The position numbers and the translations under genes are program-made. Of a DNA stretch of 64,000 nucleotides, positions 8,533-39,352 are shown in pieces. The notes beneath the pieces were generated by a model. The model was given only the letters and a program-made list of their open reading frames with translations, searched no databases and was not told the origin of the DNA. Numbering within the stretch: the first letter of the stretch is position 1; the number at the start of each line of letters is the position of its first letter. The DNA is from a bacterium. GTDB lineage: Bacteria > Patescibacteriota > Minisyncoccia > Phycocordibacterales > Zambryskibacteraceae. The stretch lies in contig JAUSGI010000008.1 in assembly GCA_030649135.1 (NCBI GenBank), positions 81,935 through 145,934 of the forward strand. The letters run 5' to 3'.

Positions 8533-9519
8533 ATGCATGACTTCGTAGCCATAGGCGAGACTACTATTGACGCGTTTATAAAGCTTGAGAATGCGAGTGT
8601 CAATTGCGATGTAGATAAGGAGAATTGCAAAATCTGTCTGCCTTTTGCGGCCAAAGTGCCGTATGAGTTCGTGGTCGAGGTACCGGCGGTCGGTAATGCG
8701 GGCAATGCCTCCGTGTCTGCTAGTCGCTTGGGCTTGAAGTCCGCCCTCGTTGCCAATATCGGCAAAGATAGCGATGGAGAAAAGTGTTTGCGCGCACTGG
8801 AGGCAGACGGAGTCTCGACCGAATATATCGGTATCCAGGAGGGTGAGAAAACTAATTACCACTACGTGCTCTGGTACGAAAGTGATAGAACTATTCTCCA
8901 GAAACATAGTAAATTTATATACAAACTACCGGATATTGGAGAGCCAAGCTGGGTATATCTGACTTCTCTTGGGAAAGATTCGGATAAATATCATACCGAG
9001 ATTGTCGAGTATCTTAAAGGCCATCCCAACATCAAACTTGCCTTCCAACCTGGCATATTTCAAATTGGTCTCGGTAAAGATAAGCTCAAAGATATCTATG
9101 GGAGAACAGATATATTTTTTTGTAACGTTGGAGAAGCAGAAAAAATTCTGGGCATCGATACTTTGGGCATAAACGAGCTTTTAAAACGTATGCAGGCTCT
9201 CGGACCCAAAATTGTGGTTATCACAGATGGACCGAATGGAGCATATGTCTTTGACGGTAAGGATATCTTGTTCCAGCCACCCTACCCCGATCCCAAGCCC
9301 CCTTACGAACGCACCGGAGCGGGCGATGCCTTTGCTTCGACGACGGTGGCCGCTCTGGCGCTTGGTAATGACCTCCCTACCGCTCTCTCATGGGGTGCAG
9401 TCAATTCAATGTCCGTGGTTCAACAAGTCGGCGCCCAAAAAGGTTTGCTCACCCGCCCTCAAATCGAAGAATATTTGAAAACTGCCCCTCCCGATTTCAA
9501 AGCCAAGCAAGTAAAATAA
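8533..9519 (+). CDS. PfkB-family carbohydrate/nucleoside kinase (ribokinase-like)
   Basis: Carries the anion-hole motif 'TGAGDAF' and the ribokinase-like fold signature 'AVGNAGN'. Confidence 0.7.
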   Translation: MHDFVAIGETTIDAFIKLENASVNCDVDKENCKICLPFAAKVPYEFVVEVPAVGNAGNASVSASRLGLKSALVANIGKDSDGEKCLRALEADGVSTEYIGIQEGEKTNYHYVLWYESDRTILQKHSKFIYKLPDIGEPSWVYLTSLGKDSDKYHTEIVEYLKGHPNIKLAFQPGIFQIGLGKDKLKDIYGRTDIFFCNVGEAEKILGIDTLGINELLKRMQALGPKIVVITDGPNGAYVFDGKDILFQPPYPDPKPPYERTGAGDAFASTTVAALALGNDLPTALSWGAVNSMSVVQQVGAQKGLLTRPQIEEYLKTAPPDFKAKQVK

Positions 9520-24119: not shown

Positions 24120-24130
24120 AAAAATTTATA

Positions 24131-24162
24131 AAAAAATAGGACCCGCCAAGTAGGCCGGGTCC
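24131..24162 (-). terminator. Hairpin terminator for island gene a (GGACCCGCC...GGCCGGGTCC followed by a T-run on the minus strand)
   Basis: An A-run at 24131-24137 on the plus strand precedes a GC hairpin at 24139-24162. Confidence 0.5.
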
Positions 24163-24199
24163 TGTGGCAGTTTGGGGAGGTCTGCCAACCTTTACTTCT

Positions 24200-24388
24200 C
24201 TACTCGGCGGGTCGGAACTTACGACGAGGCCGACTTTGTTTCAGGTCTTCGTCACACCCTACCATCTCCCTTTCTATCACATCCTGGTCAGAGAGGTCTT
24301 CATCCTCCGACCCATGCATCAGTCCAAAACCCTTAAGGAGTCGAATTTCCTTACTCGAAGGATCTACGCCTGTCTTTCTCTTTTTCAT
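24200..24388 (-). CDS. Island gene a: small acidic hypothetical protein
   Basis: 62 aa. SD 'AAGGAG' lies 6 nt upstream of the ATG. The gene sits in the ~60% GC segment and is followed by a hairpin terminator. Confidence 0.5.
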   Translation of the reverse strand: MKKRKTGVDPSSKEIRLLKGFGLMHGSEDEDLSDQDVIEREMVGCDEDLKQSRPRRKFRPAE

Positions 24389-24514
24389 CTGGGCTCCTTA
24401 TGTCCTGCTTCCCTTTCGATTATGTTCAGGGTGAAGGCTTACAGACACTAACGCTCTGTCCTTTAGAGTGGCATGAACAAGCTAGTTTGTCAATTAGTTG
24501 TAATCGTTGTATAG

Positions 24515-24544
24515 AAAAAGGACCCTCCATGCTGGCAGGGTCCC
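24515..24544 (-). terminator. Hairpin terminator for island gene b (AAAAA-GGACCCTCC-N-AGGGTCC)
   Basis: 'aaaaaggaccctccatgctggcagggtccc'. It is near-identical in design to the hairpin at 25517-25545. Confidence 0.5.
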
Positions 24545-24621
24545 GTTGTGAGTTGAGGCCGTGTCCTCAACTCGTTTGTACTTAGGCGTGACATCGGCAC
24601 GCATTGGGATCTGAAACTCTG

Positions 24622-24852
24622 CTAGTCCCCGATCGCCCCACTTCGTGAGAACGGGCGAGAGACGCCCGGTAACACCCGGGACGGATCCATCCCGAGGCGC
24701 TGCCTCAGCCACGCGACCCACTCCGGATAGCTCGGAGTGAGAAGCACGACGACCTCGTCGTAGGTCGGCGTGTCCCCAAGCACGTCGCACACGGCTGGCA
24801 AAAGAAGCCGGCGTGTTTCCTTGTCGAGTCTCCGACCCGATGCGTCATTCAT
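24622..24852 (-). CDS. Island gene b: hypothetical protein
   Basis: 76 aa with a strong SD 'GAGGAGAAGG' upstream of the ATG. The gene is GC-rich. Confidence 0.5.
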   Translation of the reverse strand: MNDASGRRLDKETRRLLLPAVCDVLGDTPTYDEVVVLLTPSYPEWVAWLRQRLGMDPSRVLPGVSRPFSRSGAIGD

Positions 24853-25085
24853 TGCCTTCTCCTCATCGCGCTTTGCGCGACTTTAAACATTTAGCAGTGC
24901 GTCCTCTTGCGAGGCCTATACGCACTGCGGTTCAGCCCCCTCTGTGCGGGGAATCGATACTTGATTATATTTTCTTTCTCAAAGAACTAACTGTTTCGCC
25001 CTTTCGGACTCATCAGCGCAGATACACATCTGCGAACAGCGGGAAGTTTTGCTGAGATACTTCCCGAAACTCTGGGTTTGCACGG

Positions 25086-25406
25086 TTACCCCTTCTTCTT
25101 CTTGCTACCGGCACCCATGCCAGCGGCCATCCGGCGCTGCTCCTCCGCGCGCTCGCTCCGGTGGGCGAGGTAGCGCTTGTGCGCCGCCTCACGGATGGAG
25201 GCCGAGAACTCGGTCTCCTTCCGACGCCGCTCGGACAGCATGCGCCTGGCGCACGCCAGGCGTGGCCGCCAGAAATCGGAGGTCGCGAGTTGCTTGTCGA
25301 GCTCGACCGCGGCGATATCCGCCGCAACGGTCGAAGTGGCGACCTGCACCGGCAGGGTGCAGGCCAGAAACTCTATCACTCGGCCAATGGAGCGTGTCGC
25401 ATTCAT
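25086..25406 (-). CDS. Island gene c: hypothetical Ala/Arg-rich protein with a KKKKG tail
   Basis: 106 aa with SD 'AAGGAGAA'. Upstream on the minus strand lies TTGACAA-N17-TATCAT. Two hairpins follow downstream. Confidence 0.5.
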   Translation of the reverse strand: MNATRSIGRVIEFLACTLPVQVATSTVAADIAAVELDKQLATSDFWRPRLACARRMLSERRRKETEFSASIREAAHKRYLAHRSERAEEQRRMAAGMGAGSKKKKG

Positions 25407-25516
25407 GGCGTTCTCCTTATCGTGCCTCCCCTTCGTCTATACTTAGGGTGAGGACTTTCTAGCTACAATGATAGCATAATACAACTTATTTGTCAATGGC
25501 TTTAAATAGTTAAAAG

Positions 25517-25545
25517 TAAAAGGGCCCTCCGTGTAGGCAGGGCCC
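25517..25545 (-). terminator. Hairpin terminator for island gene d (AAAA-GGGCCCTCC-N-AGGGCCC)
   Basis: 'aaaagggccctccgtgtaggcagggccc'. Confidence 0.5.
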
Positions 25546-25564
25546 AGTCGAAACGCCACCTAGT

Positions 25565-25960
25565 CTAGTAACTGGTGGGGAAAGCAGATGTCAGCGCCTC
25601 CCCCTGGTCGCTTGCCGGGTTGGGGTTGAACCAAACCCGAGAGATGGACCCATGGCCGATGTGATACACGCCGGCCAGAGTACATGAGCCATCCCGCTGT
25701 GCGGGGTGATGTACGAACACCCCGAAACGCAGACGGGCCAGCGCGGCCGCGATGCAGAACGGCACATCCGCGACGGCATAGACGAAGCCATCGCCATGCT
25801 CGCGGACGTAGTCCGCGAGCCCATCCGTGGTGACGAACACCGTGGGGTCCTTCACGATCTCCACGTAAACACCGTGGAGAGTTCGCATCGCCCGCCGCTG
25901 TGTGGGCGACATGTCGTAACGCGATAACCAATAAATCCTCCCGATGTAAATTCTGTTCAT
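25565..25960 (-). CDS. Island gene d: hypothetical protein
   Basis: 131 aa starting at the ATG at 25960 ('MNRIYIGRIYW...'), with SD 'GGGGGAA'. Upstream on the minus strand lies TTGACAA-N17-TATTAG. No family recognised. Confidence 0.5.
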   Translation of the reverse strand: MNRIYIGRIYWLSRYDMSPTQRRAMRTLHGVYVEIVKDPTVFVTTDGLADYVREHGDGFVYAVADVPFCIAAALARLRFGVFVHHPAQRDGSCTLAGVYHIGHGSISRVWFNPNPASDQGEALTSAFPTSY

Positions 25961-26068
25961 GGTTCCCCCACTCTGCCTCCCATTTCTCGGAGGGCTATAG
26001 GTAATACAACCTTGGTCTGCTCTCACTAATAGCACAGCACAATTCTCTTGTCAACAGCGTCCATAAAT

Positions 26069-28426: not shown

Positions 28427-28663
28427 TGCGGGATCGTCTAATGGTAGCCTGCCCGCCATCGCTGGGAGTTGAGCTGGGAGATCGTCTAATGGTAGGACAC
28501 CTCCCTCTGAAGGAGGTTATCTTGGTTCGAGTCCAAGTCTCCCAGCTCAGGCCCTAGCAGGCGGGGACATCGCCATCCCTGCCCCGCCGTGGCGGGGTGA
28601 AAAGGCGAGCATCTTGCTTGTCCCGGCCAGCCGGGCGGGAGTCGAGTCCAAGTCCCGCAGCCA
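28427..28663 (+). pseudogene. Fragmented tRNA-Gln(UUG)-like gene interrupted by GC-rich palindromic insertions and by an intact tRNA-Gln(CUG)
   Basis: Segments match the intact tRNA-Gln(TTG) at 39279-39352 in collinear order. 28427-28447 matches nt 1-21 (21/21). 'GACATCGCC' at 28567-28575 matches nt 22-30 (9/9). 'GGCGAGCATCTTG' at 28604-28616 matches nt 39-51 (12/13). 28647-28663 matches 'TCCAAGTCCCGCAGCCA' (17/17). They are separated by inserts that include ccccgccgtggcgggg. Confidence 0.55.
28475..28545 (+). tRNA. tRNA-Gln (anticodon CTG)
   Basis: Hand fold. Acceptor is TGGGAGA/TCTCCCA with a U1-A72 pair, as in bacterial tRNA-Gln. D-stem is GTC/GAC. Anticodon stem CCTCC/GGAGG encloses loop CTCTGAA. 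The T-arm is CTTGG-TTCGAGT-CCAAG. No CCA is encoded. Confidence 0.75.
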
Positions 28664-39278: not shown

Positions 39279-39352
39279 TGGCTGCGGGACTTGGATTCGA
39301 ACCAAGATACTCGCCTTCAAAGGGCGATGTCCTACCATTAGACGATCCCGCA
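39279..39352 (-). tRNA. tRNA-Gln (anticodon TTG)
   Basis: Hand fold. Acceptor TGCGGGA/TCCCGCA, anticodon loop CTTTGAA, T-arm CTTGG-TTCGAAT-CCAAG, CCA encoded. Confidence 0.8.

Follow-up and report, generated by a model that had tools for sequence, protein, structure and literature searches.

The islet and its genes

The 64-kb stretch of DNA analysed here, referred to below as the window, belongs to the chromosome of a Zambryskibacteria-like member of the Parcubacteria from groundwater. Between the convergent core genes encoding a DUF2231 protein and a major facilitator superfamily (MFS) transporter, it carries a 1.9-kb accessory islet of four small minus-strand genes, designated a, b, c and d (Table 1). 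The listing of open reading frames (ORFs) agrees with the initial annotation of this DNA, which had recognised four minus-strand ORFs of 62, 76, 106 and 131 aa (the last counted from ATG) and had assigned a strong Shine–Dalgarno (SD) sequence to each; all the SD strings that it quoted are present in the sequence. Alternative-frame ORFs, several of them long, overlap the islet genes. The genes flanking the islet, encoding RNase J, MFS, DUF2231 and CTP synthase, are core genes in conserved synteny. The window is part of an NCBI metagenome-assembled genome (MAG; locus tags Q7R69_; contig of 216,895 bp). The same sequence was assembled identically, and independently, as a 6.9-kb Logan contig, which argues against a chimeric assembly.

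Composition and coding signature

In a 500-nt profile the GC content reaches 0.57–0.60 across positions 24501–26000, compared with about 0.46 in the flanks and mostly 0.42–0.52 in the rest of the window. The GC content of third codon positions (GC3) is 0.75 in b, 0.83 in c and 0.74 in d, and in all three genes the codon positions follow the order GC3 > GC1 > GC2 (0.75, 0.66 and 0.51 in gene b). With 49 long proxy genes of the window taken as the host reference (GC3 0.50 ± 0.07, maximum 0.69), b, c and d are outliers at z = 3.6, 4.7 and 3.4, respectively, and not one of 142 in-frame 300-nt slices of host genes has a GC3 of 0.74 or more. The order GC3 > GC1 > GC2 is confined to the proposed frames, the alternative-frame ORFs being without it, and is the signature of genuine genes with a GC-rich origin. 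All five spacers of the islet have a host-like GC content of 0.46–0.50. The islet is made up of three GC-rich coding sequences (CDSs) in a native-looking non-coding frame and of one gene, a, of native composition. This alters the initial description, in which the GC content jumped from about 45% to about 60% exactly at the stop codon of the MFS gene (24119) and the composition as a whole was considered foreign. The GC-rich stretch is real, but it does not start at that point, since gene a and the spacers are native and the excess lies inside the three CDSs only; likewise, foreign composition can be maintained for b, c and d (z = 3.4–4.7), but not for gene a or the non-coding frames.

Three predicted transcription units

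The promoter-like elements of d and c are 71% identical over 31 nt (repeat family D3), and that of c is the best promoter match in the islet. The d element is missing from the consensus promoter scan; its −10 hexamer ends in G. The leader of b lacks a shared-type promoter and has no more than an isolated TATAAT (24973–24968). The leaders of c and a are 74% identical over 38 nt (repeat family D2), gene a has the SD sequence AAGGAG, and the small GC hairpin of the b leader, hereafter the type-b leader, abuts the SD.

A 24-nt hairpin of the pattern GGRCCCKGCCWRCWYGGMGGGYCC with a U-run behind it is present in three copies in the 64 kb, after d, b and a, where none is expected by chance. In six copies of this hairpin from four genomes, all nine pairs form (9/9), two of them with compensatory changes, and a G is bulged in every copy; the shuffle statistic for this covariation is weak (36/500), the sequences being few. 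The copy after a holds a compensatory U-A to G-C change. The copy after d is one base off that at positions 9435–9458 of L002 and closely resembles that of L010 (L-numbers designate the related loci compared with the window and P-numbers the proteins from searches).

It had been proposed initially that each gene ends in the shared hairpin, that three genes share an upstream TTGACAA-N17 element and that the four genes are autonomous modules. The hairpin does follow a, b and d, but c is followed by a different hairpin without a U-run and then by a hammerhead ribozyme. The upstream elements of c and d are alike, both with an extended −10 TG, whereas a has a TTGACA with a poor −10 and b has nothing of the shared kind. 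By sequence, d has a promoter and a terminator, c a promoter only, b a terminator only, and a a terminator and a poor promoter; we infer promoter and terminator activity from these assignments. Four autonomous modules are not compatible with this picture: no terminator separates c from b, and the ribozyme joins them. The c–b gap, with its ribozyme and without the shared terminator, points to three putative transcription units (d; c–ribozyme–b; a), not four.

Table 1. Features of the islet, listed in the direction of transcription
Feature	Position	Strand	Description
Promoter-like element, unit d	26026–26054	−	TTGACA 26054–26049, 17-nt spacer, TG-n-TATTAG 26031–26026; sequence reading
Leader of d	25961–26025	−	Hairpin CCCTCC-N7-GGGAGG and SD GGGGGAA; sequence reading
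Gene d	25565–25960	−	131 aa; uncharacterised ~120-aa family; alpha/beta flavodoxin-like fold predicted
Putative terminator T_d	25512–25545	−	GGGCCCTGCCTACACGGAGGGCCC, then U-run
Putative promoter, unit c–hammerhead–b	25468–25496	−	TTGACA-N17-TATCAT, extended −10 TG, 11/12 matches
Leader of c	25407–25467	−	Hairpin CCTCACCCT-N12-AGGGGAGG, SD AAGGAGAA
Gene c	25086–25406	−	106 aa; small helical protein predicted; family in Patescibacteria-type contigs
Hairpin 3′ of c	25040–25066	−	CGGGAAGU-N11-ACUUCCCG, no U-run, directly 5′ of ribozyme
Predicted type III hammerhead ribozyme	24988–25042	−	Rfam RF00008 and custom model; overlooked in the initial annotation
Ribozyme stems	Stem I 25034–25017; stem II 25009–24998; stem III 25039–25036 with 24994–24991	−	Fold
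Ribozyme core	CUGAUGA 25016–25010; GAA 24997–24995	−	Predicted cleavage after U17, between 25035 and 25034
Leader of b (type-b)	24853–24987	−	Motif GATTCCCCGCACAGAG 24955–24940, bulged GCAA-loop hairpin 24928–24894, small GC hairpin, SD GAGGAGAAGG
Gene b	24622–24852	−	76 aa; singleton cluster; not annotated in NCBI record
3′ untranslated region (UTR) of b	24512–24573	−	Hairpin GAGTTGAGG-N6-CCTCAACTC 24573–24550, putative terminator T_b 24543–24520, U-run
TTGACA, unit a	24488–24493	−	Poor −10 TG-c-CACTCT; not in consensus scan list
Gene a	24200–24388	−	62 aa, hydrophilic; annotated MDO8590228.1; singleton cluster
Putative terminator T_a	24127–24162	−	GGACCCGGCCTACTTGGCGGGTCC, then U-run; ~20 nt from convergent MFS stop

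A hammerhead ribozyme between c and b

The ribozyme reads CUGUU|CGCAGAU-GUGU-AUCUGCG-CUGAUGA-GUCC-GAAA-GGGC-GAA-ACAG, with the bar at the predicted cleavage site. Both the minimum free energy (MFE) fold and the centroid fold contain all three hammerhead stems, stems I and II being closed by loops and stem III open, the arrangement that defines type III. The catalytic core is complete, with CUGAUGA, GAA, the A24994–U25036 (A15.1–U16.1) pair and, at 25035, U17 (H17, not G). The Rfam model Hammerhead_3 (RF00008) matches with 37.5 bits (E 6.1e-6 in a 2.2-kb search). Rfam searches at E ≤ 1 on the islet and ten related loci returned this hammerhead, tRNAs and tmRNA only.

A scan of IMG/VR with a pattern for the core and stem II found comparable elements on 24 viral contigs. 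Most of these share the layout of triplet, 18-nt stem I hairpin with a GUGU- or GAGU-type loop, and core, and many have a GC-rich hairpin or inverted repeat a few bases upstream. They lie in short gaps between same-strand ORFs: the distance from the end of the upstream ORF to the core is typically ~45–70 nt, and the following ORF begins, in most cases, 22–85 nt past the core. A custom covariance model built from 14 viral hammerheads of the same layout (100% pairing, 9/15 pairs with a compensatory change) matches the window element over its full length with 68.6 bits (E 1.1e-17) and 15/15 standard pairs; it found no other match in 151 kb of related loci. On the evidence of sequence and predicted structure, the element in the c–b gap is a further member of this known phage subclass. 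It shares with the phage hammerheads the complete core, the open stem III, the 18-nt stem I with a GUGU-type loop, the GAAA loop of stem II, the GC-rich hairpin just 5′ and the location in a short same-strand intergenic gap. It differs from them in lying on a bacterial chromosome without nearby phage genes and in its longer downstream gap (~140 nt to the start codon), which holds a conserved leader. Bacterial hammerheads are reported to cluster in prophages, and it has been proposed that they cut long polycistronic phage RNAs into gene-length mRNAs (Perreault et al. 2011, PMC3088659). Our literature search for hammerheads in the candidate phyla radiation (CPR)/Patescibacteria found nothing relevant.

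A different element was observed 3′ of two c homologues (L020 3813–3900 and L022 1017–1100). It consists of an SD and a 7-codon mini-ORF (MLATGMA and MLPLVMA, respectively), followed by a conserved segment ACTTGGCCC...CGGGGAAG...CGCCAAGA, and could represent a leader peptide or an RNA element. The window has no copy of it; the hammerhead stands in its place.

Shared frames around unrelated cargo

The leader and the 3′ UTR of b recur in L018, around gene 2 of L002 and in L010, a groundwater contig with a cassette 3′ of ftsH, which was the sole further locus with the terminator pattern in a metagenome scan. The b leader is 91% identical to that of L018 over 68 nt (E 2e-18) and the b 3′ UTR 86% identical to that of L002 gene 2 over 59 nt (E 1e-10). 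The type-b leader motif GATTCCCCGCAYAGAG is exact in L002, L010, L018 and L019, and among 47 loci the combination of motif and terminator was found in the window, L002, L010 and L018/19 only. Among the four CDSs enclosed by these frames (76, 71, 102 and 96 aa), neither blastn (word 7) nor tblastx shows a convincing similarity, whatever the reading frame, which speaks against diverged or frameshifted homologues. The comparisons gave short matches only, mostly with E > 0.05, the best being a 16-nt identity (E 4e-4).

In L002, L010 and L018, a promoter-like TTGACT-N17-TGnTAYNAY lies upstream of the type-b leader; at its place the window has gene c, the plain hairpin and the ribozyme. Conversely, four c-family genes occupy four different frames. 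The GC3 of the cargo is 0.67–0.88, versus 0.33–0.58 for neighbouring core genes.

A hot spot between the DUF2231 and MFS genes

The order CTP synthase, DUF2231, site, MFS (convergent) and RNase J is conserved in relatives, and the content of the site varies. Relatives with an empty or nearly empty site, which the initial annotation had suggested looking for, do exist: the gap measures 0 nt in L004, 6 nt in L006 and ~100 nt in L007. A spacer of ~250 nt is present in L003, and in L012–L017 the site is reduced to 95 nt, consisting of the DUF2231 terminator and a shared hairpin cut short. Other relatives carry one cassette (L018/L019), two cassettes whose proteins occur on 49–59 contigs (L002), a cassette with a signal-peptide protein (L011), a secreted protein of 163 aa on the opposite strand (L048–L053) or a 392-aa ORF (L005). 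None of these occupants encodes a relative of a–d. The DUF2231–MFS site is a hot spot with presence/absence polymorphism.

In L012 (4947–5030) and likewise in L013–L017, the remnant of the shared terminator, AGGACCCTGCCTACACGGAGG, lacks its 3′ arm and stands beside the terminator hairpin of DUF2231; it looks like the deletion scar of an earlier cassette. The DUF2231 protein of the L012 type (P0072) occurs on 24 contigs, with the short-gap layout at every place returned. The first cassette protein of the closest relative (L002 8521–8799) combines a hydrophobic segment at the N-terminus with a C-X27-H-X3-C-X2-C motif recalling the zinc-binding anti-sigma family zf-HC2, to which its Pfam match is weak (E 0.14).

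The encoded proteins

As the initial annotation had noted, none of the four proteins belongs to a recognised family: searches of a–d against Pfam, PHROGs, PADLOC and NCBIfam, and of five cassette proteins of relatives against the family libraries, gave nothing above threshold. A weak sub-threshold match linked b to DUF7122 (E 0.02). Genes a and b form singleton clusters, and b has no known relatives, although no homology search aimed at a or b was made. The description of all four genes as orphans does not apply to c, which has six relatives (50–71% identity, one of them in Candidatus Sungbacteria), nor to d. Orphan-like in a word-indexed search, d has 59 relatives at E ≤ 1e-3 by exhaustive phmmer, mostly of ~120 aa and with 26–58% identity. 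One member of the d family (P0026) is a fusion with sigma-70 region 4. The d matches also include a few giant cadherin/RTX proteins, which were set aside as probably false and driven by repeats.

The structure model of d (predicted local distance difference test, pLDDT, 89) has a beta-alpha-beta-alpha-beta-alpha layer and three more beta strands, and that of c (pLDDT 87.5) has helices at residues 3–14, 24–36 and 38–41 and a basic 50-residue helix at 46–97. With the family profiles of c and d as queries, the PDB yielded no significant match, and when solved and viral structures were searched by fold and by sequence, the similarities to c and d were generic only; although confident, the predicted folds are uninformative on function. 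No signal peptide was seen in a–d by inspection. A defence or anti-defence module, one of the functions initially considered, is not supported, PADLOC giving 0 families at E ≤ 1 for a–d. Our guess is that a–d are small cytoplasmic regulators or conflict proteins, because of their hot-spot context, their size and the single sigma-region-4 fusion.

Two loci with d homologues deserve mention. In L009 (4126–5372 and 6545–7105) the homologue P0004 is translationally coupled, by an ATGA overlap, to an uncharacterised 5′ ORF of 292 aa, both being enriched in GC3 (0.63 and 0.65) relative to the flanking ribosomal and truB genes, and a 186-aa ORF with a GC3 of 0.81 lies between truB and rpsO; these GC3-enriched ORFs show that similar GC-rich insertions exist in another genome. 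L008 is a 1.4-kb contig of four small ORFs, including the homologue P0003, with a partial tmRNA-like Rfam match at 339–436 (57.6 bits).

Origin of the GC-rich cargo

The c homologues have a GC3 of 0.88–0.98. The c homologue of L021 (GC3 0.98) is preceded by an AT-rich promoter region and has as neighbours core genes that are GC-rich in their own right (RNR 0.89, GDH 0.81). The occurrence of a c homologue among such genes shows that there is a GC-rich lineage with AT-rich promoters, a plausible type of donor; it also weakens an account of the high GC3 by selection only. At fourfold sites, the c homologues are 30–50% identical to the c gene of the window, a level that amounts to saturation where, in effect, only G or C is allowed. 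Since these sites are saturated, the c family is old and not the product of a single recent transfer. A putative transfer of whole cassettes from GC-rich genomes is a simpler account of the GC-rich cargo.

Other features of the window

A second small GC-rich islet (GC ~0.60) lies at 1330–1960 on the minus strand. Its two ORFs, 1643–1867 (74 aa) and 1389–1667 (92 aa, Cys-rich), overlap by ATGA, have a GC3 of ~0.68 and show no Pfam match; they have a promoter-like element of their own, TTGATT-N16-TAAGGT, and a different terminator, CACACCCTCG-N12-CGAGGGTG-T5. At 28429–28662 on the plus strand, a tRNA-Gln(CUG) (28475–28546) lies inside an apparent second, split tRNA-Gln-like gene. The 5′ piece of the latter, TGCGGGATCGTCTAATGGTAG, equals the start of the tRNA at 39352–39282 (anticodon UUG by reading), and a matching 3′ piece, GAGTCGAGTCCAAGTCCCGCAG, follows ~190 nt downstream. 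The interval has a GC content of 0.64 and an MFE of −120.9 kcal/mol (z −4.3), and the split gene could be an intron-containing or a disrupted tRNA.

Discussion

We favour, with a confidence slightly above even, the explanation that the islet consists of tandem moron-like accessory expression cassettes that were horizontally acquired, have been reshuffled where genes meet and are located at a recombination hot spot. Unit d would then be a complete cassette of promoter, hairpin leader, SD, CDS and terminator. Transcription of the second unit would start at the best promoter of the islet and pass through c, the plain hairpin and the hammerhead. The latter, we infer, may cleave itself in vivo. Cleavage would yield a c mRNA with a protective 3′ hairpin and a 2′,3′-cyclic phosphate, and a b mRNA with a 5′-OH, the folded ribozyme and the conserved leader, and would uncouple c and b in stability and translation. 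Gene a would depend on a weak promoter or on read-through. The cargo CDSs would come from a GC-rich gene pool, and the promoter, leader and terminator frames would be common to the cassettes of related genomes, with the cargo exchanged in the manner of phage mosaicism, by recombination at gene borders or close to them. The initial reading of the islet as a horizontally acquired cassette of independent small genes is thereby kept as far as the accessory nature and variability of the site and the GC-rich b, c and d are concerned, and abandoned for the independence of the genes, for gene a and for the frames.

The concept of the phage moron (Juhala/Hendrix; Cumby et al. 2012, PMC3594210) offers a close comparison in layout, a promoter, a gene and a terminator with deviant GC content. 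Like a moron, the islet is extra DNA in comparison with related genomes, holds small genes whose GC content is unlike that of their neighbours (in b, c and d, but not in a) and shows mosaic exchange at gene borders. It differs in lying outside a phage or prophage, in its tandem cassettes with two ribozyme-linked cistrons, and in the use of one leader and terminator frame around unrelated cargo across genomes.

The processing proposed for c and b also has an engineered parallel. RiboJ-type insulators are synthetic hammerheads placed between a promoter or an upstream cistron and a gene. As in these constructs, a hammerhead 5′ of the leader would fix a downstream 5′-OH end regardless of what lies upstream. 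The window element is natural, and it is unrelated to the sTRSV-derived sequence of RiboJ except in the catalytic core.

Several observations weigh against the interpretation as tandem moron-like cassettes. Gene a, with a GC content of 0.50 and a GC3 of 0.51, has the native composition. The promoters and terminators in Table 1 are consensus matches only, and generic scans for such elements show no enrichment over shuffled sequences. No phage, integrase or transposase genes adjoin the islet, whereas a moron in the original definition is part of a phage genome. Pattern scans of IMG/VR found no relatives of c or d, the d-family alignment being too diverse for a pattern, and tblastn of c and d against the INPHARED phages gave no matches, which also tells against the phage moron-like genes that the initial annotation had considered. 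The terminator and leader patterns likewise have no exact match in IMG/VR, and we identified no mechanism that swaps cargo exactly at CDS borders. As for the ribozyme, its Rfam score is below the gathering threshold of 48.5, and a default scan omits it. It has U17 (a GUU triplet), in contrast to C17 (GUC) in 14/14 phage ribozymes; together with one U-G pair in stem II this is its sole deviation. According to the NUH rule, GUU is cleavable, but more slowly. Because of U17 and the low Rfam score, the ribozyme may cleave slowly or not at all.

Among the alternatives, descent from a degraded prophage or integrated element, of which an early or accessory region was left after loss of the mobility genes, seems unlikely to us, even though viral contigs carry the hammerhead subclass between cistrons in the same arrangement, all four genes lie on one strand, are small and for the most part resemble ORFans, and the c homologue of L021 adjoins a tRNA and a LexA/S24-methyltransferase gene. 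The islet has no integrase, att-like repeat, structural or replication gene in it or beside it, its core flanks are in conserved synteny, relatives vary by single cassettes and not by a large element, and c and d lack phage homologues in our searches. The genes might instead be native to the Patescibacteria, with GC-rich codons selected, for instance, for mRNA stability or RNase resistance, and the frames might be the strong expression signals of the lineage. The native composition of the frames accords with this, as do the third-position A+T content of only 2–16% in the c family despite saturated synonymous sites, the finding of this family in Patescibacteria-type contexts only, and the 5′ hairpins, 3′ hairpin and ribozyme, which suggest a design for mRNA stability. 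We nevertheless regard this origin as distinctly unlikely in view of the presence/absence polymorphism with unrelated cargo at the same position, the ordinary composition of gene a, the absence of the terminator from the other 62 kb of the window, and the match in composition between the L021 homologue and its GC-rich genome, for which a GC-rich donor is simpler. A single functional system of four jointly acting proteins (defence, anti-defence or toxin–antitoxin) would fit the grouping of small proteins in a variable hot spot, typical for conflict systems, and the fusion of one d-family member to sigma-70 region 4. It is very doubtful, however, given the 0 hits to PADLOC, the failure of the four genes to co-occur elsewhere, where c homologues (L020–L022) and d homologues (L008, L009) have other neighbours, and the presence of only one or two, different cassettes in relatives.

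Two further readings have hardly anything to recommend them in our judgement. Integron-like arrays of cassettes, including clusters of attC sites lacking integron integrases (CALINs), resemble the islet in that small ORFs of differing composition follow one another on the same strand, an imperfect hairpin coming after each, here with a conserved bulged base, and in cargo that is unrelated between genomes. Such an array is nonetheless a highly improbable explanation, failing already on the defining attC sites: the shared hairpins are only 24 nt long, are followed by a U-run as in terminators and lack the RYYYAAC...GTTRRRY cores, three of the four cassettes have a promoter-like element of their own, gene c has no such hairpin, and there is no IntI or other integrase in the window region examined. 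It is equally hard to believe that the GC-rich segments are structured non-coding RNAs with ORFs arising by chance from the high GC content. A GC-rich stretch is a classic mark of such RNAs where the genome is poorer in GC, and several long ORFs in other frames overlap the genes; but the proposed frames alone show codon periodicity, c and d belong to conserved protein families and have confidently predicted folds, strong SDs stand at the correct distance from the starts, and Rfam has no match in the islet except the hammerhead.

The islet is thus mostly explicable by known processes, namely the horizontal uptake of genes at a hot spot, mosaic recombination along gene borders and processing by a ribozyme between cistrons. 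The re-use of a frame with unrelated cargo, the restriction of the GC excess to the CDSs and the chaining of two frames by a ribozyme go beyond the known pattern. A bolder proposal would be a dedicated cassette system of the Patescibacteria, in which a conserved promoter–leader–terminator frame, with the leader motif AUUCCCCGCAYAGAG and the bulged-G terminator hairpin, takes up unrelated GC-rich ORFs swapped precisely at CDS borders and ribozymes sometimes chain the frames; the conserved hairpin or leader could then serve as a recombination or RNA-level signal. We consider such a system unlikely.

The genomes of CPR bacteria are tiny, and how accessory genes are acquired and expressed in them is poorly understood. 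The locus described here is a chromosomal hot spot whose single-gene cassettes change from one close relative to the next. The ribozyme, if active, would be an intercistronic hammerhead in a bacterial chromosome without prophage context, and a natural counterpart of the engineered ribozyme insulators. If the re-use of frames proves widespread, the leader and the terminator could provide sequence tags for a mobile repertoire of small proteins in these bacteria.

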